64,000 nt of DNA from an uncultured bacterium. GTDB taxonomy: Bacteria; Chloroflexota; Anaerolineae; B4-G1. This document shows, one piece after another, positions 22,478 to 43,861 of the stretch; the stretch's first letter is position 1, and each line of letters starts with the position of its first letter. The notes below the pieces were generated by a model, which saw only the letters and a program-made list of their open reading frames with translations, was not told the DNA's origin and did not search any database. The DNA is taken from assembly GCA_965612745.1 (NCBI GenBank), contig CBFDTD010000003.1, forward strand, positions 1,816-65,815, read 5' to 3'. The translations under genes were made by a program, and so were the position numbers.

Positions 22478-25024
22478 CTATGTGCCTCGCAGCGTCGCGC
22501 CCAGTTCCCGCTCCAGCCGGCGCACGATCTTGGCCCGCAGTTTGGCAACCTCCCGGTCGGTCAGCGTGCGGTCGCCCGCCTGATAGGTGAGGCGGTAGGC
22601 TAGACTCTTCTTACCGGCCCCCACTTGCTCCCCTCGATAGACGTCGAACAGCACGACCGAGCGCACAAGCGGCCTGCCGGTCTGGGCGATGAGGTCGCGT
22701 ACCCGTATCGCCGGTACTGCCTCGTCCACCACCAGCGCCAGGTCCTCGTAGACCGGCGGGTGGACGGAGATGGGCACCATCCTACGCGGCGCTCCCCAGG
22801 CCGCCAGCAGCCCGTCCAGGTCAAACTCCAACGCGCAGACAGGCTGCTCCGGCAGGTCGAAGGCCTCCCGCACCAGAGGGTGCAGTTCCCCCATCACGCC
22901 CACCGCGCCGTCCCCAACGCTCACCTGCGCACAGCGGCCCGGATGGAAGGCCGGGTGCTCGCCCGGCTCGAACGTCCCCTCCAGACCCAACCCTGCCAAC
23001 AGTGCCTCCACTACCCCCTTGAGATCGTAGAAGCCCACCGGCGCGCGGTCCTGTCCCTCCAGCCACGAGCGGGCCTCTCGCGGCCCGGTCATCACGATGC
23101 CCAGCCGGCGCGGCTCGTCGGGGAGCGTCTGCCCCTCCACCGGCAGGTAGACCGCGCCGATCTCGAAGATGGCCACGCGGTCGAGGAAGCGCAGGTTCTC
23201 GCGGGTGGTGTGGAGCAGGGAGGGAAGTAGCGTCTGCCGCAGGTAAGCACGCTCCGCCGACAAGGGATTCCGCAGGCGCAGATGGTCGGCCGGGTCAGGG
23301 GGTGGCCCCTGAGGCCGCAGTTTTCCCTCGTCCTCAATGTTCACCAGCGAGTAGGTGATGACCTCGTCCAGTCCACAGCCGGTTAGAAGGTCACGCACGC
23401 GCTCAGCCCCTTCCAGGCGGGGGTTGGCCCGCTGCGGCGGCAATTCGTCGCGCATAAGCGTCGTTGGGAAGCGGTCGTAGCCCCAGATGCGTCCCACCTC
23501 CTCAACCAAGTCTATGGGCCGCGTGACGTCGAGGCGATGGGATGGAACCATCACGTTCAGGGTTTCAGGTTTCATAGTTCCAGGTTCCCCGCTGTCTGTT
23601 AAACTTGAAACCTGCAACCCCGAAACCTGAAACTCAAGAGAGGTGAGGATGCGGATGATTTCGTCCGTCGGAATCTCGACGCCCAGGACACGGGTGGCGT
23701 AGGCCGGGTCAAAGACGACGACCCGCTGCGGCTGACGGCCAGGGTACAAATCACCGATGACCGGGACGACGGTGCCACCGGCCAGTTCCGCCATCAGATG
23801 GGCCGCCCGTGCCGCTGCCTTCACCGTCAACTCCGGGTCCACCCGCCGCCCGAAGCGCTGGCTTGCGTCGGTCGTCAGCCCCAGCAGGCGGGAGGTGCGG
23901 CGGATGTTGAGGAAATGGAAGTTCGCCGACTCCAGGAGGACGTCGGTCGTCTCCTCGGTGACCTCGCTTTCCAGACCGCCCATCACACCGGCCACGGCCA
24001 CAGGGCCGCCGCCGTCGGTGATGAGTAGCATTTCTTCGTCGAAGGTGCGTGAGATCCCGTCGAGAGTCATCATCTGCTCACCGGGTTCGGCGCGGCGCAC
24101 GATAATGACCGGGCGGTCTTCGCCTGGCCTGGGGCGCAGGAGGTGGTAGTCGAAGGCGTGCAGCGGCTGCCCCAACTCCAGCATCACGTAGTTGGTGACG
24201 TCCACGATGTTGTTGATGGGACGCATCCCGGCGCGGCGCAGCCGCATCTGCATCCAGAAGGGGGAAGGCTTCACTTCCACGCCTCGGATGAAGGCCGCCG
24301 AGTAGCGTGGGCACAGGTCAGGATCGGCGATCTCGAGCGCGATGAAGTCAGGCGTGGGGGTCAGTTCCGCCGGATGTCGCTCCAGCACTTCGAGCACGTC
24401 CCTTCTGAGCGGCACGTCGAGGAGCGCCGCCGCCTCGCGGGCGATGCCGAAGACCGAGTACAGGTGGGCGAAAGGCCCCTTGATATCGAACTCCAGCACA
24501 GCGTCGCCCAGGTACTCGGCCAGCGGCGTACCGACGGGCGCGTCGTCGGGCAGGTAGATGATGTCCACGTGCTCGTCGGAGAGGCCCAATTCCTTTTCCG
24601 AGCAGACCATCGCCCGCGAAGTGACGCCGCGGATTCTGGCCTTCTTCAATTTCTTGATGCGCGGCTCCTCGGAGTAGGGATCCCAGAGGCGAGCGCCCTC
24701 CATCGCGAAGGCCACCTTGAGGTGCAGATCGCTCTGCCCTCGGAGTGGTAGCAAACTGGGAGGCCCGGAGACGACGACTTCGGGCTCCGGGCCACCGTAC
24801 TCCACCTCCGCCAGGACCAGCCGGTCGGCGTTGGGGTGGGGATACACGGCGCGGATCTCGCCGACGACGACCTTCTCCGGGTCCCAGGGTAGTTCAGCCC
24901 CCGGTAGGCCGATGTATTCGATAGTCTCCACATCCAGTCCGGCCAGTGTCAGCCGTTCGGCCAGTTCCTTGATGGAAACCGGGATGTCTACGTAGTCTTT
25001 GAGCCAGGATAAGGGAACCTTCAT
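22478..25024 (-). CDS. pheT: Phenylalanine--tRNA ligase beta subunit
   Basis: 848 aa. N-terminus MKVPLSWLKDYVDIPVSIKELAERLTLAGLDVE. B3/B4, B5 and C-terminal anticodon-binding regions. Confidence 0.9.
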   Translation of the reverse strand: MKVPLSWLKDYVDIPVSIKELAERLTLAGLDVETIEYIGLPGAELPWDPEKVVVGEIRAVYPHPNADRLVLAEVEYGGPEPEVVVSGPPSLLPLRGQSDLHLKVAFAMEGARLWDPYSEEPRIKKLKKARIRGVTSRAMVCSEKELGLSDEHVDIIYLPDDAPVGTPLAEYLGDAVLEFDIKGPFAHLYSVFGIAREAAALLDVPLRRDVLEVLERHPAELTPTPDFIALEIADPDLCPRYSAAFIRGVEVKPSPFWMQMRLRRAGMRPINNIVDVTNYVMLELGQPLHAFDYHLLRPRPGEDRPVIIVRRAEPGEQMMTLDGISRTFDEEMLLITDGGGPVAVAGVMGGLESEVTEETTDVLLESANFHFLNIRRTSRLLGLTTDASQRFGRRVDPELTVKAAARAAHLMAELAGGTVVPVIGDLYPGRQPQRVVVFDPAYATRVLGVEIPTDEIIRILTSLEFQVSGLQVSSLTDSGEPGTMKPETLNVMVPSHRLDVTRPIDLVEEVGRIWGYDRFPTTLMRDELPPQRANPRLEGAERVRDLLTGCGLDEVITYSLVNIEDEGKLRPQGPPPDPADHLRLRNPLSAERAYLRQTLLPSLLHTTRENLRFLDRVAIFEIGAVYLPVEGQTLPDEPRRLGIVMTGPREARSWLEGQDRAPVGFYDLKGVVEALLAGLGLEGTFEPGEHPAFHPGRCAQVSVGDGAVGVMGELHPLVREAFDLPEQPVCALEFDLDGLLAAWGAPRRMVPISVHPPVYEDLALVVDEAVPAIRVRDLIAQTGRPLVRSVVLFDVYRGEQVGAGKKSLAYRLTYQAGDRTLTDREVAKLRAKIVRRLERELGATLRGT

Positions 25025-33140: not shown

Positions 33141-33356
33141 ATGCCCACACGTGGGATTGATGAGTTGGTCTGGATGGCGCTCACCGATTCCGCCTTCCGT
33201 GAGCAGTTGCTTAACGGCCATCGCCGCGAGGTACTGGCTTCCCTCAGCCTCACGGAAATGGAGCAACAGGCCGTGATGGCGGTTAAGGCTGACACGCTGG
33301 AGGACTTCGCCGGAGCGCTCTGCCGGCCGGCATTCAGCATGGTAGCCTGTCTCTAG
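33141..33356 (+). CDS. NHLP/Nif11-like leader-peptide-type small protein (candidate RiPP precursor), 71 aa
   Basis: LTDSAFREQLLNGHRREVLASLSLTEMEQQAV follows the D-x-x-F-R-x-x-LL...L..L.LT.EE..AL pattern of nitrile-hydratase-type leader peptides. The C-terminal tail ALCRPAFSMVACL carries two Cys. Begins 3 nt after the preceding small ORF, in the same frame. Confidence 0.4.
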   Translation: MPTRGIDELVWMALTDSAFREQLLNGHRREVLASLSLTEMEQQAVMAVKADTLEDFAGALCRPAFSMVACL

Positions 33357-33378: not shown

Positions 33379-33466
33379 GGGTGTGGCTAAAATCAGTGGG
33401 ACGTCCGGCTTCAGCCGGAAAAGCCCCGCCTCCGGCCTTTTCTTCCCACGAATTTTAGCCAGACTC
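33379..33466 (+). mobile_element. MITE-A copy (88 bp, internal 11-bp deletion) with TSD CCGGTCAT
   Basis: Flanking direct repeat CCGGTCAT at 33371-33378 and (T)CCGGTCAT at 33467-33475. Confidence 0.75.
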
Positions 33467-34162: not shown

Positions 34163-34256
34163 GGGTGCCGCTAAAATCGGTTGGACGTCCGGCTTCAGCC
34201 GAAAAATCCCCGCTGAAGCGGGGCGTTTGGCCTCTCCTCCCATTCATTTTAGCCAA
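34163..34256 (+). repeat. Degenerate MITE-A copy
   Basis: GCCGCTAAAATCGGTTGGACGTCCGGCTTCAGCCGAAAAATCCCCGCTGAAGCGGGG...CATTTTAGCCA. Ends are diverged. Confidence 0.6.
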
Positions 34257-34300: not shown

Positions 34301-35059
34301 ATGTCTCTACCCTGTCAGATTCAATTGTCTGTCTTCGAGGGCCCGTTGGACTTGCTCCTCCATCTCATTGAGCGAGAGGAACTCGACATCACCACGGTCG
34401 CACTGGCCAAGGTAACCGACCAGTACCTGGCTTACCTGGCGGAACTGGAACGAGGGCAGATAAAAGAACTGGCGGATTTCCTCGTTGTGGCAGCGAAACT
34501 CCTGCTTATAAAGTCTCAAGTCCTACTACCGCGCCCTCCTTCGCCGACTCCCGAGACCGAAGACGTAGGTGACGAACTGGTGCACCAGTTGCAGGTTTAC
34601 AGACGCTTCAAGCAAGTCGCAGCACTGCTGCACGAGCGGGAGATGCAAGGGTTACACGGTTACGTGCGCATCGTCCCTCTCCCCCCTCTTGAGCCACAAG
34701 TTGACCTGGGCGAGGTGACACTCGACGACCTATTGGCCGCCGTGCAGGAGGCACTAGATGCAAAATCTGCCCCGCCGATCGGAGAAGTTGTCGCGCCTAT
34801 TGTAGTGACCGTCGCCGAACAGATTGCCTGCATTGAGGAGCGACTGACTTGGCAGCGTCGGGTTTGTTTCCGCGAGATCCTCTCAGATACCGCCACCTCC
34901 GTCGAGGTCATCGTGACCCTGTTGGCGCTGTTGGAACTGATCAAGCAAGATCGAGTACGGGTGCGACAGGAACGGCTGTTCGGTGAGATCATCATTGAGC
35001 GGCGGATCCCTGCCGAGGGAGCGCCCGCCGCCGCTCCTGCCACCAGTCCAGCAGCATAG
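34301..35059 (+). CDS. scpA: Segregation and condensation protein A
   Basis: N-terminus QIQLSVFEGPLDLLLHLIEREELDITTVALAKVTDQYLAYL is the ScpA/kleisin signature. Confidence 0.8.
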   Translation: MSLPCQIQLSVFEGPLDLLLHLIEREELDITTVALAKVTDQYLAYLAELERGQIKELADFLVVAAKLLLIKSQVLLPRPPSPTPETEDVGDELVHQLQVYRRFKQVAALLHEREMQGLHGYVRIVPLPPLEPQVDLGEVTLDDLLAAVQEALDAKSAPPIGEVVAPIVVTVAEQIACIEERLTWQRRVCFREILSDTATSVEVIVTLLALLELIKQDRVRVRQERLFGEIIIERRIPAEGAPAAAPATSPAA

Positions 35060-35390
35060 CCCCACATGCTCCTGCCCCATCCACTGCCACATCCACCAGT
35101 GTGCCGTTACGCCCCGGCACGAAAGTCTGGTGGTATTCGTCGCTCAGGGCATAGGCCACGCTCAAACCAATACTGATTGTACGGAGAGTGCTGCCGGTGG
35201 AAAAGTGGCGGTGTAGCGCCCGCCGGTAGAGCCAGGCTAGCACCCCGTAGGCCACCGCGTGACCGATCTTCTTGAGCAGTATGTCAAGCCAGCGCTCTCC
35301 GATATGTGGCAGGTCTGATCGGGCGGACACCATGAAAATCAGCGCCATCCAGACTAACGGAGGAAACCAATGCCGAAGGAACTGTTTCAC
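34992..35390 (-). CDS. VanZ-family membrane protein
   Basis: ALSDEYHQTFVPGRNGTLVDVAVDGAGA matches the VanZ-like core. Its start overlaps the GT4 stop (ATGA). Confidence 0.6.
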   Translation of the reverse strand: MKQFLRHWFPPLVWMALIFMVSARSDLPHIGERWLDILLKKIGHAVAYGVLAWLYRRALHRHFSTGSTLRTISIGLSVAYALSDEYHQTFVPGRNGTLVDVAVDGAGACGAMLLDWWQERRRALPRQGSAAQ

Positions 35391-36598
35391 TCTTCAACTC
35401 CATAGGCCCGTTCGACCGTCTCCACCAACCGCTCCCACGCGAACCGCTGCCTCACGTCGTTGGCGGCCGCCTGGCCCAACCGCTCTCGCAACTCCCGGTT
35501 CTCCAGCAGCCGCACCACCGCCTCGGCAAACCCCTCTACGTCGCCGGGGGCCACCAGCCAGCCGGTTTCGCCGTGGCGGATGTACTCCCGGTTCTGCCCC
35601 ACCGCCTCGGCCACGACCGGTACACCGGCTGCCAAAAGATCCAGCAATTTCACCGCGCACTTGGTCCGGTTGACCAGCGTGTCGTCGAAGGGGTAGATGG
35701 CGAGGTCAGCCTGGGTGAAGTAGGCTGAGAGTGCCTCGGACTCGACCCAACCGACGTATTCGACCGCATCGGCTAGGCCGGTTTCTTGGGCCAACCCCAG
35801 CAGTTGTTCTTCCTCGCCAAACAATCCTTTCCCTACCACAAGCAGTCGTACCTCCGGCGCCGTTTCACGCACACGGTGCAGCACTTCAATGACGCGACGG
35901 ACGGGGAACTCGAAGAATCTCGTGTATAACAAGATGCAGGATGCAGGATGCGAGGTGCAAGACGGGACATCTCTCGTTTCTTGCTTCCTGCTTCCTGCCT
36001 CCTGCCTCCTGCCTCCTGCCTCCTGCCTCCTTGCCACGCCGTTGGGGACGTAGAACACTTGCTGGGGCGGTACGCCCATTGCCCAAACCAGGCTCTCCAA
36101 TGTGCGGCTGGCGACGGTGACCGCGTTGGCGTGAGTGAGGCCCCAGCGCTCTTGCCAGGCGAAGAAGCGCCGCTGGGCTGGAGTGTAGCCGCCGATCTCA
36201 TTCCAGCCGCCGGGACCCTCCCAGTCATCGGTGTCCACTACCAGGCGCGGTCTGCGCGTGCGGGGGAGGCGGGCCAGCAACCAGTGGGTCAGGCCGCTGT
36301 AGGCTTTAGGTTTAAAGAAGTGCACCACATCGGGGTGCAGGGCCAGCGCCCGGCGGGTCAGCCGAAGGGCGATGAGGGCGTGAAATAGCAGTGGAAGACG
36401 CGGCGGCAGAGAAATGTTCTCGATGTGGATTCCCTCCTTCTCCCAACACCGGCCGGCGTCCTCCGGGTTCTGCCACGGGGGGAGAAGCATGGTCACGGCG
36501 TGACCGCGCACTGCCAGCGCTTTCGCCATCGGCAGCGCGCGTACACTCATCGTGCCTCGGGGCCGCAGCCCGAAGGGGCCGACCATTACGACGTTCAT
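35387..36598 (-). CDS. GT4-family (GT-B) glycosyltransferase containing an in-frame heptanucleotide-repeat insertion
   Basis: N-domain MNVVMVGPFG...; C-domain EAVGQNREYIRHGETGWLVAPGD (E-x7-E region). An insert RRQEAGGRRQEAGSRKQETRD is encoded by a (CAGGAGG)n repeat. Confidence 0.75.
   Translation of the reverse strand: MNVVMVGPFGLRPRGTMSVRALPMAKALAVRGHAVTMLLPPWQNPEDAGRCWEKEGIHIENISLPPRLPLLFHALIALRLTRRALALHPDVVHFFKPKAYSGLTHWLLARLPRTRRPRLVVDTDDWEGPGGWNEIGGYTPAQRRFFAWQERWGLTHANAVTVASRTLESLVWAMGVPPQQVFYVPNGVARRQEAGGRRQEAGSRKQETRDVPSCTSHPASCILLYTRFFEFPVRRVIEVLHRVRETAPEVRLLVVGKGLFGEEEQLLGLAQETGLADAVEYVGWVESEALSAYFTQADLAIYPFDDTLVNRTKCAVKLLDLLAAGVPVVAEAVGQNREYIRHGETGWLVAPGDVEGFAEAVVRLLENRELRERLGQAAANDVRQRFAWERLVETVERAYGVEE
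35984..36032. repeat. Heptanucleotide tandem repeat (CYTCCTG)x7 inside the GT4 coding sequence
   Basis: CTTCCTG CTTCCTG CCTCCTG x4 CCTCCTT. An adjacent (ATGCAGG)x2-3 repeat lies at 35937-35958. Confidence 0.85.
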
Positions 36599-36671
36599 AC
36601 CCCCTCAACAACGAACAGCCGGGGCACGGAGATACACGGCCCCGACACTCACACTACTCACCAAGTTGAGA

Positions 36672-37081
36672 TTAACGCCCGCCGATACCCTTGCTATGGG
36701 CAAGGATTGACTCAGGCCCAACGACCCTCAAACCATCTGCATCAAACATCTGCCAGTCACCAACGTCGTAGGTGTAGACTTTGCGCACCCCTGCAACCAA
36801 CGCCGCTGCTGCGTGGCGGGCATCGTGCACCCGTCTTGCGGTGAGGCCGTGACTGGCTGCCAATTCGACCGCAAGCAGGATCACCTCAGCGCTCCATATA
36901 CCTCACTCAGAATGCCAGCCGTAGTGCAGGCAAACAACTCACCACGACGTGCGCGCTCGACTAACAGCCGCGCCTCCTGATGGCGAGGATCCCCCTTGAG
37001 CAGAGCCCCGATAAAGACGCCCGCGTCCAATAGCACGCTCTGGGACACATTGCCTCCCTTAACTCTCGGCATAGACGGCAT
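36672..37081 (-). pseudogene. PIN-domain VapC toxin split by a frameshift into two ORFs (36881-37081 and 36672-36884)
   Basis: N-terminal part VLLDAGVFIGALLKGDPRHQEA; C-terminal part LTARRVHDARHAAAALVAGVRKVYTYDVGDWQMF. The two frames overlap at GTGA and are fused by a 1-nt shift. Confidence 0.55.
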
Positions 37082-37271
37082 CCTTCCAACCTCTGGGCAC
37101 GTAGCCTTCTAATACAGGAAGTGGTTTTAGGCGCGGCCTCGGCTCAATGGTGACTTCCTCGCCGTCGGGCATACGTACAACGAGGCGTGTATAGCGCCTA
37201 GCCACGTCCCACAACACCTCTTCCAAGGACCGCTCCTTAATATCATCCAACACCAGAGTTTGGGTCGTCAT
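37059..37271 (-). CDS. Putative VapB-type antitoxin
   Basis: 70 aa. RBS GGAGGT 6 nt before ATG. Directly upstream of, and overlapping, the PIN gene. Confidence 0.5.
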   Translation of the reverse strand: MTTQTLVLDDIKERSLEEVLWDVARRYTRLVVRMPDGEEVTIEPRPRLKPLPVLEGYVPRGWKDAVYAES

Positions 37272-37383
37272 GTCCTTACCTCCAACAACGCCACTCCTGC
37301 GCCGCATCTACATACCCCACCGGCTATGAGAAAGCAACCATCGGGCCGCAGCCCGAAGGGGCCGACCATCACGATGTGCATAT

Positions 37384-39225
37384 TCACTCCACGGTAACAC
37401 TCTTCGCGAGATTTCTGGGTTGGTCCACGTCGCAGCCTCGCCGCACTGCCAGATGATACGCCAGCAATTGCAGCGGCACGACGTTGACCACCGGTGAAAG
37501 CAGCGGCGGCGTCGGTGGGGCGTAGAGCACGTAGTCGGCTTTGGTTGTGATGTCCCCGTCCCCTTCCGTCGCCAGTGCGATGACGATGCCACCTCGCGCT
37601 TTGACCTGCTCGACCTGGCTCACCATCTTGTCGTAGACATGGTCGCGTACGGCGATGGTGACGACGGGCATCGCCTCGTCAATGAGCGCGATAGGGCCGT
37701 GTTTCATCTCCCCGGCCGGATAGCCCTCGGCGTGGATGTAGGAAATCTCTTTCAGTTTAAGCGCCCCTTCCAGAGCGATGGGATAGTTGATGCCCCGGCC
37801 CAGGTACAGGAAATGCTCCCGATCGTAGAAGATATTAGCCAGTTGCTCGTATTCGTCGCCGTGGTTCAGAGTGCGACCCACCATGTCCGGCAGTCGGGCC
37901 AGGTCGTTCACCAGATGCCGCAACTGCGCTCTCTCTAGCACGCCGCGCAGTTCCCCCAGATAGCAGCCCAACAGGTAGAGGTCCACCAGGCTAGCAGTGA
38001 ACGCTTTGGTCGAAGCCACGCCAATCTCTGGGCCGGCGTGCATCAGGATGTAGCCGTCGGAGAGGCGCATCGCCTGGCTGCCGATGACGTTGACGATGCT
38101 CCACAGCCCTGCTCCCTTCGCCCGCGCCTCTTCCATCGCTGCCAACGTGTCCACCGTCTCACCGCTCTGCGTGATGGCCAGCACGGCAGTGTTCTCATTG
38201 ATGATGGGGTCGCGGTAGCGGAACTCGGAGCCGTAGTCCACCTCGACCGGCACGCGGGCCAGCGCCTCCAGAATGAACTTGCCCACGAGGCCGGCGTAGG
38301 CCGAGGTGCCGCAGGCGACGATAATCACTTTCTCCAACGAGCATGCCTTCTCCGGCGTCAATTCCAGATGCTCCAGTCGCACCCGCCCGGCGTCGAAGTC
38401 GGCCCGGCCGCGGATGGTATCAGTGACGGAGCGGGCCTGCTCGTAGATTTCCTTCTGCATAAAATGACGGAACTCCCCCTTGGCCGCTGCCACGGGGTCC
38501 CAGGGTATGGTGTGCACCTCTGCTGTGACCGGCTCGCCACTCAGCGTCGTCACCCGCGCCCCGTCCCGAGTCACCACTGCCATCTGCCGGTCTTCGAGGA
38601 AGATCATCCGGCGGGTGTGCTCCAGGATGGCGGGGATGTCGGAGGCGACGAACATTTCTCCCTCTCCTATCCCGATGGTGAGGCCACCAGCGTTGCCCAG
38701 GCGAGCGGCAACGATGCGGTCGGGTTCGCGGCTGCTGAGGAAGACGAAGGCGTTGGCCCCTTTTACGTGGGTCAGCGCCCGGCGCACCGCCGTCTCCAGG
38801 TCAGCCCCGCCCGCCATGTACCCCTCGACCAGGTGCACCACCACCTCAGTGTCGGTCTCGGAGGCGAAGCACCGTCCCTCGGCCTCCAGTTCCTGTCGCA
38901 GTTGGAGGAAGTTTTCGATGATGCCGTTGTGGACGACGGCGACCTCGCCGGTGACCCCAACGTGGGGATGGGCGTTGCGGCGACTGGGCTCGCCGTGAGT
39001 AGCCCAACGGGTATGGCCGATGCCGATCTGTCCACTCATCGGCTCGGCGTCCACCAGTTCCATCAGGCGGGCCAGTTTGCCGACCTCGCGTCGCACGGCG
39101 ATGGTGTCGCCCTCGACCACCGCCAGCCCGGCTGAGTCGTAGCCCCGATACTCCAGCCGTTTCAGTCCTTCAAGGATGATGGGGGTTGCGTCTCGCAGCC
39201 CCACGTAGCCGACTATGCCACACAT
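37384..39225 (-). CDS. glmS: Glutamine--fructose-6-phosphate aminotransferase
   Basis: N-terminal MCGIVGYVG (Ntn Cys), two SIS domains, C-terminal VTVE. 613 aa. Confidence 0.9.
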   Translation of the reverse strand: MCGIVGYVGLRDATPIILEGLKRLEYRGYDSAGLAVVEGDTIAVRREVGKLARLMELVDAEPMSGQIGIGHTRWATHGEPSRRNAHPHVGVTGEVAVVHNGIIENFLQLRQELEAEGRCFASETDTEVVVHLVEGYMAGGADLETAVRRALTHVKGANAFVFLSSREPDRIVAARLGNAGGLTIGIGEGEMFVASDIPAILEHTRRMIFLEDRQMAVVTRDGARVTTLSGEPVTAEVHTIPWDPVAAAKGEFRHFMQKEIYEQARSVTDTIRGRADFDAGRVRLEHLELTPEKACSLEKVIIVACGTSAYAGLVGKFILEALARVPVEVDYGSEFRYRDPIINENTAVLAITQSGETVDTLAAMEEARAKGAGLWSIVNVIGSQAMRLSDGYILMHAGPEIGVASTKAFTASLVDLYLLGCYLGELRGVLERAQLRHLVNDLARLPDMVGRTLNHGDEYEQLANIFYDREHFLYLGRGINYPIALEGALKLKEISYIHAEGYPAGEMKHGPIALIDEAMPVVTIAVRDHVYDKMVSQVEQVKARGGIVIALATEGDGDITTKADYVLYAPPTPPLLSPVVNVVPLQLLAYHLAVRRGCDVDQPRNLAKSVTVE

Positions 39226-39317
39226 AATGTTCCCTCCCTCATCGTCACCCGGATCCGTACCCGTGATCGGGCCGGGCCCGCTAGGGCATGTAAAGAGCGT
39301 TTCGAAGAGACCTGGGT

Positions 39318-39365
39318 GGAGGCCCGGCTTCAGCCGGGAGATCCCCGCTGAAGCGGGGCCTCCGG
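39318..39365. repeat. Core-only copy of the MITE-A hairpin module
   Basis: GGAGGCCCGGCTTCAGCCGGGAGATCCCCGCTGAAGCGGGGCCTCCGG. Confidence 0.6.
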
Positions 39366-42823: not shown

Positions 42824-43861
42824 ATGCAATCTCCAACCCCCAATCTCCAGTCCCCCAATCTCCACTCCCCAATCGGCTTCCTCACCGCCTACGTGCCGGA
42901 GGAACTCTTCCACGCGGCGGGCTTCACTCCCGTGTTCATCTTCCACACTCCGGACGACCACGGCTACGCCCGCGCCCACCTGCCCGGCTTCACCTGCTGG
43001 ATCGCCGGTTCCGCCCTCGACCAGGCCCTCGCCGGCGAACTGGACGGCCTGGCCGGGATGGCCCTTGCCCAGACCTGCGACACTATGCAAGGGCTAACCG
43101 ACCTTTGGCGACGCAATGTGCCTCACATCCCCCTCTTCCACTTCGGGATGCCGCTGCGCCTGGACGGCCCCTCCGCCCGCGCCTACCTCCTGGCCGAACT
43201 CCGATCCTTGCGTGAGCGAGTGCAGGCCGTGACCGGTCGCCCCATCTCCGACGACGCGCTGCGGGAGAGCATCGCGCTCTACAACCGCACCCGCACCCTG
43301 GTGCGCCGCCTTTACACCCACGCCGCCGACTTCGCCCCACCCGACCTGTACGCGCTGGTGTGGGCCGCTCTCTCCTCTACTCCTCTGCCCCCCTGCTCCC
43401 CTGCTCCTCTGCCCTCTTGCTCCTCTGCTCCCCTGCTTCTCCTCGTCGGCTCTGCCCTGGCTGACCCCGTCCTCTTTGACGTCATCGCCCAGGTTGGCGC
43501 CCGCGTGGCCGGTGACCTGCTGGACCTGGGGGAACGCTACTTCGCGGTGGACGCCGCCGAGGACGGCGACCCCCTCGAGGCCATCGCCGACCGGCTGTTG
43601 GCGCTGGTGCCCACTCCGACCAAGCATCATCCCCAGCACACCCGCACCGCCCACCTGCTGTCGCTGGTGCGGGAGCGCAACGCCGACGGTGTCATCTTCG
43701 CCCGTCAGAAATTCTGCGAGCCCCACGGCTTCGACTACGTGCAACTGGCCCACGCACTGGACCAGGTCGGCGTGCCCCACCTGCTGGTCGAACTGGAGCA
43801 GGCCTCTCAGGCCGGCCAACTGCGCACGCGGGTGGAGGCGTTTGTGGAAATGCTGGCTTAG
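42824..43861 (+). CDS. 2-hydroxyacyl-CoA dehydratase subunit (HgdB-like) carrying a CT-rich octamer-repeat insertion
   Basis: GFLTAYVPEELFHAAGFTPV and LDGLAGMALAQTCDTMQGL align to the HgdB N-terminal blocks. C-terminal FARQKFCEPHGFDYVQL. Insert PLPPCSPAPLPSCSSAPLLLL. Confidence 0.75.
   Translation: MQSPTPNLQSPNLHSPIGFLTAYVPEELFHAAGFTPVFIFHTPDDHGYARAHLPGFTCWIAGSALDQALAGELDGLAGMALAQTCDTMQGLTDLWRRNVPHIPLFHFGMPLRLDGPSARAYLLAELRSLRERVQAVTGRPISDDALRESIALYNRTRTLVRRLYTHAADFAPPDLYALVWAALSSTPLPPCSPAPLPSCSSAPLLLLVGSALADPVLFDVIAQVGARVAGDLLDLGERYFAVDAAEDGDPLEAIADRLLALVPTPTKHHPQHTRTAHLLSLVRERNADGVIFARQKFCEPHGFDYVQLAHALDQVGVPHLLVELEQASQAGQLRTRVEAFVEMLA
43384..43441. repeat. Imperfect octanucleotide (YCTGCTCC)-like tandem repeat / 75-nt polypyrimidine tract inside the HgdB-like gene
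   Basis: CCTGCTCC CCTGCTCC TCTGCCC TCTTGCTCC TCTGCTCC CCTGCTTC. Confidence 0.7.

Follow-up and report, generated by a model that had tools for sequence, protein, structure and literature searches.

Does a heptanucleotide repeat in the middle of a glycosyltransferase (GT) gene make that gene a phase-variable switch? Intragenic repeats with a non-triplet unit are usually read in this way, and the question is raised by array A, a period-7 array inside a GT4-family gene of an uncultured Anaerolineae bacterium (Chloroflexota, lineage B4-G1). The gene lies in a 64,000-nt stretch of contig CBFDTD010000003.1 (assembly GCA_965612745.1, positions 1,816 to 65,815), referred to below as the window, and an original prediction, made from the letters alone, had proposed it to be a classic contingency locus that switches surface glycosylation on and off. 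A change in unit number does shift the reading frame, as natural alleles demonstrate, but on two defining tests the gene does not behave as a contingency locus: out-of-frame (OFF) genotypes are rare, and repeats of this kind are a general feature of the genome that reaches essential genes. Array A is one instance of a heptanucleotide class found lineage-wide in Anaerolineae and Thermoflexia genomes. It is probably best seen as a repeat that is translated, prone to slippage and tolerated within the disordered loop of a conserved GT4 enzyme, and not as an evident dedicated switch.

The gene and the elements inside it are the following.

35387–36598, minus strand: GT4-family GT-B glycosyltransferase of 403 aa; the protein is identical to RLC91091.1, from a metagenome-assembled genome (MAG) labelled Chloroflexi bacterium.
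35933–36037, minus strand: hypervariable interdomain linker, residues 188–222, between the conserved VPNGV and LLYTRFFEF; 48–168 nt long in orthologues and coil in the AlphaFold model.
35982–36031, minus strand: array A, with coding-strand units of 5 x AGGAGGC followed by 2 x AGGAAGC; nt 568–617 of the coding sequence, codons 190–206.
35933–35951, minus strand: array B, 2.7 units of CATCCTG on the coding strand (GATGCAG on the plus strand), translated as HPASCI.
35928–36013, minus strand: predicted hairpin in which part of array A pairs with array B; RNA minimum free energy −48.8 kcal/mol, z = −4.0 against dinucleotide shuffles.

The enzyme assignment was supported by domain and structure comparisons. 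Pfam places Glyco_trans_4_4 (PF13579) at residues 15–187 (E = 3e-22) and Glycos_transf_1 (PF00534) at residues 234–380 (E = 1e-27); the two Rossmann-like halves carry the N- and C-terminal signatures of retaining GT4 enzymes with a GT-B fold, and the C half aligns with the solved GT4 structures BshA, PimA and MshA. Matches to NCBIfam models all fall far under the family cut-offs. The conserved segment PFDDTLVNRTKCAVKL may correspond to the EX7E-type motif, which is usual at this place in GT4 enzymes. The AlphaFold (AF2) model is only moderate, with a mean predicted local distance difference test score (pLDDT) of 62.5 and low values over residues 123–218; two beta/alpha halves are visible in it, the residues encoded by the repeat form coil at a pLDDT of about 25, and the model was used solely to call the linker not predicted structured.

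Since the first domain ends at residue 187 and the second resumes at residue 234, array A lies between the two halves of the enzyme. Tandem Repeats Finder, run on the whole window, reports it with 7.1 copies, 97% matches and a score of 86, and its periodicity is perfect over 39 nt (35993–36031, 5.6 perfect units). This is the sole long perfect run with a period of 5–12 in the window, against a chance expectation of 1.6e-14. The array is translated as RRQEAGGRRQEAGSRKQ. Array B, found by the same program with 2.7 copies and 100% matches, stands 30 nt from array A, and its HPASCI peptide is kept in many orthologues. Both repeats, the seven units between the Rossmann halves and the second repeat 30 bp away, thus lie where they had been predicted. 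The array B unit matches the reverse complement of the array A unit at 6 of 7 positions, and the pairing register of the hairpin between them is ambiguous because array A has more units than array B. Simulated gain or loss of one or two units gives products of 232–259 aa that lose the C half, the frameshift that the original prediction expected, while three units more or less leave the frame intact.

Comparison of near-identical strains, by the count of units that had been suggested as a check, showed that this number does change in nature. The cluster formed at 90% identity around the window GT holds 13 full-length variants, all 13 intact. Twelve of them have the 7-unit linker length (11 of 403 aa, one of 387 aa with a later start) and show point differences only; the remaining one, of 396 aa, belongs to strain L164, whose gene has 5 substitutions in 1212 nt relative to that of the window, together with a clean 21-nt deletion that leaves 4 units in place of 7; its protein is exactly the product simulated for the loss of three units. 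In-frame events of +42, −21, +21 and +21 nt were found in the clusters of other species. Out-of-frame events were found in three sister species, each against an allele at least 99% identical: −14 nt in L163 relative to L105, +7 nt in L167 relative to L168, and −14 nt in L169 relative to L089, the last being the only difference in 1297 nt. In L163, L167 and L169 the gene is split into N and C fragments in the assembled contigs. Each of the eight strain-level indels found in orthologous arrays adds or removes a whole number of 7-nt units, the signature of strand slippage, and the site is a slipped-strand hot spot as claimed. L163 (ENA ERZ27256778) and L169 (ERZ27248455) have neighbouring accessions, the same k141 naming and the same −14 nt event in different species, a resemblance that could reflect a common habitat or study, or a pipeline effect.

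How often is the gene off? The sample was unselected: a single singleton and 19 clusters (90% identity), for which the sole requirement was to contain several members. It held 93 distinct intact alleles, one allele split by slippage and one doubtful allele, L165. The latter was rejected as a slippage OFF allele, because its contig stops within the gene, its long array is contracted and 1 nt is deleted. The OFF fraction is about 2% (95% interval 0.3–7%); with an unconstrained frame, so many in-frame alleles would have a probability of 9e-42. Two more split alleles, L167 and L169, came from an N-half search aimed at fragments and stand outside this count; that search returned only proteins of at most 327 aa, apparently capped at about 1.75 times the length of the query, fragments without a denominator that are unfit for rates, and most of them are contig-end truncations or are broken elsewhere in the gene. 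An established heptanucleotide switch offers a measure for comparison. In E. coli K1, the phage-borne accessory gene for the O-acetyltransferase NeuO has an AAGACTC repeat in its 5' coding region; it carries 3–53 repeats across 64 complete genomes and is out of frame in 65.6% of them (42/64; PMC13001214), as is expected when the frame is unconstrained. The two OFF frequencies differ at p = 1e-19 (Fisher), and in-frame and out-of-frame genotypes are not both common in the GT.

The frame is also held across orthologues. We fetched 160 orthologous loci and located the N and C halves independently, obtaining 163 sequences with 133 distinct linkers. In 163 of 163 the two halves share one reading frame that no stop interrupts; as the loci were the best 80 matches per collection, a choice that disfavours split genes and biases the set toward intact ones, this result was not used as an estimate of the OFF fraction, and cluster membership was used in its place. 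Relatives of the GT number in the thousands and were found in at least 510 species-level genomes. The 120 closest share 61–79% identity, range from about 373 to 526 aa and come from Anaerolineae, Thermoflexia and other Chloroflexota MAGs. A vanZ gene lies directly downstream in 77 of 112 loci, and glmS, scpA, mreB and mreC are nearby (glmS upstream in some loci, with scpA, mreB and mreC following). The gene is part of a conserved core, unlike a variable accessory surface gene.

What varies is the linker. Both halves are strongly conserved among relatives, and the segment from VPNGV to LLYTRFFEF is hypervariable. Its peptides often have a 7-residue period, such as an in-frame heptanucleotide array encodes; examples are RKQEAGS x10, KRQEAGG x14, ILHPPSS x3 and WMLDAGS x2. 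An array is present at the linker in 50 of 138 non-redundant loci, and more distant orthologues have a plain linker of 16–19 aa without one. The units used at this position are unrelated (AGGAGGC, CTCCATT, TTCGCAA, AACTGGA, GTTGGAA, CCAATAT, GTTTCGG and others). The coding strand of array A does contain the string of Shine-Dalgarno-like AGGAGG motifs to which the original prediction drew attention; with unrelated units at the same site in orthologues, we regard it as incidental and rejected it as a conserved feature. A second loop, in the C half, carries an array in 23 of the 138 loci. This second hot spot, about 50–100 codons past LLYTRFFEF (in P0021, P0017 and P0018, for example), holds arrays of the (CACGCAT)n type read as HASRITH or HVSRLTL. 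The window gene is without an array there (near 35690–35710), and the disrupted alleles P0216, P0222, P0227 and P0244 break near this place.

Arrays of this class extend well beyond the GT. The DNA flanking the GT in 138 genomes, 936 kb in all, was scanned for arrays with 3 or more copies; it holds 44 of period 7, compared with 2, 26, 10 and 14 of periods 5, 6, 8 and 9. Pooled over the 138 genomes, there are 38 distinct units among these 44 arrays and 40 among the 67 in GT genes, and the three clear arrays of the window all differ in unit. Half of the arrays outside the GT (22/44) lie deep within long open reading frames (ORFs), in addition to the 67 inside the reading frames of GT genes. The lineage is free-living, with a G+C content of 61%. 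No account of heptanucleotide arrays in Chloroflexi or Anaerolineae turned up in literature searches.

Within the window, a second example of the class lies in an essential gene.

23556–23633, minus strand: inverted heptamer arrays (TTTCAGG)n...(CCTGAAA)n, in frame in pheT as FQVSGLQVSS...EPGTMKPETLN; hairpin of −41.7 kcal/mol, z = −5.9.

The host gene (22478–25024, minus strand) encodes the beta subunit of phenylalanyl-tRNA synthetase (TIGR00472, E = 2.6e-206). At the corresponding place its orthologues have insertions of about 5 to 60 aa whose periodic peptides vary. Varied arrays thus persist for a long time at one site of pheT, and such persistence therefore needs no selection for switching. 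With period-7 arrays over-represented lineage-wide, and half of those outside the GT in frame in other genes, pheT and further housekeeping genes among them, the repeat is not special to the GT.

Inverted pairing, as between arrays A and B, recurs in part of the class. Of 111 arrays, 24 have a partner within 120 nt, and the composition-matched controls gave 8 and 1; at this frequency, we rejected the hairpin as a universal feature of the arrays. The folding z score of GT linkers has a median of −1.8 with an array and 0.0 without one (p = 5e-6), and 18 of 53 array-bearing linkers reach z <= −3.

Two further genes of the window contain periodic sequence. A 2-hydroxyacyl-CoA dehydratase / benzoyl-CoA reductase subunit-like (HgdB/BcrC-like) gene at 42824–43861 on the plus strand contains a pair of tandem arrays read in frame, namely a 14-mer x3.4 at the N terminus (42827–42874) and an 8-mer x9.4 or 24-mer x2.7 in mid-gene (43368–43441), the second of which divides the NCBIfam match of the gene into two stretches. 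A degenerate heptamer array at 1293–1321 (GTTACAG x4.1, 81% matches) is in frame in a fused membrane / spermidine-synthase-like gene that occupies 1–1947 on the minus strand and runs off the window.

The following course of events probably accounts for these observations. Heptamer arrays would form, and be replaced by others, in loops whose structure tolerates them, in essential proteins as well, and would often come as an array with an inverted partner able to fold into a hairpin. Strand slippage would then add or remove whole units. Where their number is a multiple of three, the loop would only become longer or shorter and the change could persist; other changes would remove the donor-binding C half and would mostly be purged by selection. 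On/off switching would then be a rare and probably mostly deleterious by-product. The array and its place, the varying unit number, the whole-unit indels, the rare split alleles and the class-wide pattern are observed; we infer that units change by slippage, that purifying selection does the filtering and that the inverted arms stem from template switching.

The strongest competing explanation is that the gene is a genuine contingency locus, in which stochastic switching of the GT, and so of an envelope glycan, is adaptive, for example under phage attack, and the in-frame (ON) state is favoured in most of the habitats sampled. We consider this unlikely, though it deserves serious attention. 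The repeat is intragenic, its unit is not divisible by three and it holds 5.6 perfect units; the unit number differs between near-identical strains (7 versus 4); and NeuO shows that a heptanucleotide repeat within a gene can act as a switch. Several observations also weigh against our preferred explanation. First, the three whole-unit OFF alleles are the assembled consensus in natural samples and their neighbouring genes look intact, which is unexpected if loss of the enzyme is strongly deleterious. Second, the density of arrays in the GT is about ninefold that of its flanks and is spread over two separate loops, which could mean selection for mutability of the gene. Third, by its GT4 family and its neighbours vanZ, glmS, scpA, mreB and mreC the product may be an envelope-type enzyme, and such enzymes are the usual contingency products. 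Fourth, the allele counts rest on consensus assemblies, which do not show minority variants within a population, and the orthologue set is biased toward intact genes. Against adaptive switching stand the OFF fraction of about 2% versus 66% in NeuO and the 13 intact alleles out of 13 in the species itself; the same repeat class, with the same persistence at one site, in pheT, where an OFF state cannot be adaptive; and the core, syntenic position of the gene together with its unconserved unit sequence. Of the contingency-locus claim, what stands is an intragenic, non-triplet repeat that varies between strains; what is not supported is the "classic" switch.

In Haemophilus and Neisseria, the glycosyltransferase genes lgtC, lic2A and lex2 contain tetranucleotide repeats with many units near the 5' end and have frequent OFF genotypes. 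The GT resembles them in having an intragenic repeat whose gain or loss of a unit shifts the frame, and differs in that they belong to host-adapted pathogens, have many more units, placed 5', and are often off. NeuO is closer: a heptanucleotide repeat within the ORF of an envelope-modifying enzyme, as the GT may also be, translated as a 7-aa repeat, changing by slippage and yielding a full-length product that depends on the frame, which in NeuO requires a repeat number divisible by 3. The differences lie in the location and the genetics, with the NeuO repeat at the 5' end of a phage-borne gene that is out of frame in most genomes, and the GT repeat in an interdomain loop of a core chromosomal gene that is intact in about 98% of the alleles sampled. 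The GT array is, moreover, one of many in its genome and is paired with an inverted array.

A more general proposal concerns the class as a whole. Anaerolineae and Thermoflexia may harbour an undescribed lineage-wide process that makes and keeps heptanucleotide arrays inside coding sequences at permissive loops, often as hairpin-forming inverted pairs, with the GT4 linker as its strongest hot spot; we put this forward as a speculation that we ourselves hold to be rather doubtful. If the arrays were more than tolerated debris, for instance a means of evolvability that adjusts the length of the loop and now and then turns envelope glycosylation off under phage pressure, they would represent contingency-type behaviour in free-living non-pathogens, based on an unusual repeat class.

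A comparable class already described is that of the heptameric simple sequence repeats (SSRs) over-represented in high-GC non-pathogens (Mrazek et al. 2007, as presented in PMC4679880 and PMC4692102). Its examples include GGGAATC in Xanthomonas, GGGGAYT in Nostoc, the cyanobacterial short tandemly repeated repetitive (STRR) sequences and TAACTGA in Beggiatoaceae, and polymerase slippage has been proposed as the cause of the preference for 7 nt. The likeness is that period 7 stands out from neighbouring periods here as well, in a free-living lineage of 61% GC, and that some arrays are arranged in inverted fashion both here and in Xanthomonas. In the described class a genome has only one consensus unit or a few, and the repeats are mostly intergenic or under-represented in coding DNA; the present arrays, pooled over 138 genomes, have highly diverse units and half or more of them are in frame inside genes, so that "predominantly intergenic" does not describe them.

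The repeat might instead be functional as such, either as a charged, variable loop that tunes activity (a "tuning knob") or as a hairpin with an effect on mRNA or DNA, such as a pause in translation once the first domain has been made. This is improbable. In-frame length variants are indeed common between strains, the hairpin of the window linker and of the 18 strongly folding linkers mentioned above is more stable than expected, and repeat length raises the catalytic activity of NeuO according to earlier work as cited in PMC13001214. Many orthologues nevertheless make do with the short linker of 16–19 aa and no array, an inverted partner accompanies only about one array in five, and both the units and the encoded peptides are unrelated between lineages. 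Neither an Rfam family nor an intrinsic-terminator-like feature was found at the site of the GT array.

Less probable still is that the array pair was left behind by a short, mobile, palindromic element, similar to a miniature inverted-repeat transposable element (MITE) or a Rickettsia palindromic element (RPE), inserted in frame. RPEs are members of sequence families, about 150 bp long and presumed mobile, that lie in frame in protein-coding genes (PMC10969869). The comparison is attractive in that palindromic DNA is translated in both cases as an extra peptide in unrelated genes, housekeeping genes included, at positions compatible with the fold; within the window, in-frame arrays occur in the unrelated GT4, pheT and HgdB/BcrC-like genes. 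RPEs, however, share a family consensus, whereas the arrays here share none between loci or orthologues, as the 38 units in 44 arrays outside the GT and 40 in 67 inside it attest. The GT and pheT elements of the window themselves differ in sequence, and strain-level changes are whole-unit slippage, not insertion or excision.

That the repeat or its variation is an artefact of assembly is scarcely credible: L165 does combine a contracted array beside a contig end with a 1-nt deletion, and at about 300 nt the array of its intact relative exceeds the length of short reads, but the window's 150-nt linker recurs identically in the independently assembled contigs L001 and L084, the L002 gene encodes an identical protein, further cluster members encode the same linker peptide, and the arrays of L163, L167, L169 and L164 all fit within the assembly k-mer or a read and differ by clean whole units.

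If array A is, as we favour, a tolerated repeat in a disordered loop, the case carries a caution: inference of phase variation from a non-triplet repeat can mislead, as population-level data indicate here. The same architecture can come from a lineage-wide tendency to generate repeats, with the frame held by selection even in essential genes. Heptamer arrays translated as protein loops are hereby documented across hundreds of uncultured Chloroflexota species, and the GT4 linker and the pheT insert, present in the same genome, form a testable system for asking why period 7 is favoured and whether such arrays are ever functional. In practice, these arrays break assemblies and split gene calls in the MAGs concerned.

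The surroundings of the gene show plasticity of another kind.

34992–35390, minus strand: VanZ-like gene, directly downstream of the GT; GTGA overlap if the GTG start is used.
36610–37342, minus strand: strain-specific insertion between glmS and the GT, a 743-nt insert absent in L084 and L164.
36560–36609, no strand: direct repeat copy 1, 50 nt, holding the GT start codon and the first 13 codons, MNVVMVGPFGLRP.
37343–37392, no strand: direct repeat copy 2, a relic GT 5' end, MHIVMVGPFGLRP, abutting the glmS stop codon.

An overlap between the GT and the VanZ-like gene had been predicted at an ATGA; it is possible with the GTG start, where the shared sequence is GTGA, and is absent from the JGI gene call, in which vanZ begins at a later ATG. 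The toxin-antitoxin insertion with direct repeats at the 5' end of the GT was correctly recognised, as was the plasticity of the locus to which it testifies. It contains an antitoxin-like ORF (37059–37307) and a PIN gene present as two overlapping ORFs (36881–37081 and 36672–36884), possibly a frameshifted pseudogene of the toxin. The 50-nt repeats that flank it are 86% identical and represent a duplication of the GT 5' end; the protein begins MHIVMVG in strains without the insertion and MNVVMVG in the window.

A repetitive extragenic palindromic (REP)-like element of about 51 nt with a small hairpin, CCGGCTTCAGCCGG, occurs around the GT locus in the intergenic intervals 33379–33429, 34163–34213 and 39298–39348. 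Close to the first of these, a 71-aa ORF (33141–33356, plus strand) has a weak match to PF14407 (Frankia_peptide) in the JGI annotation of an identical contig and possibly encodes a peptide precursor.

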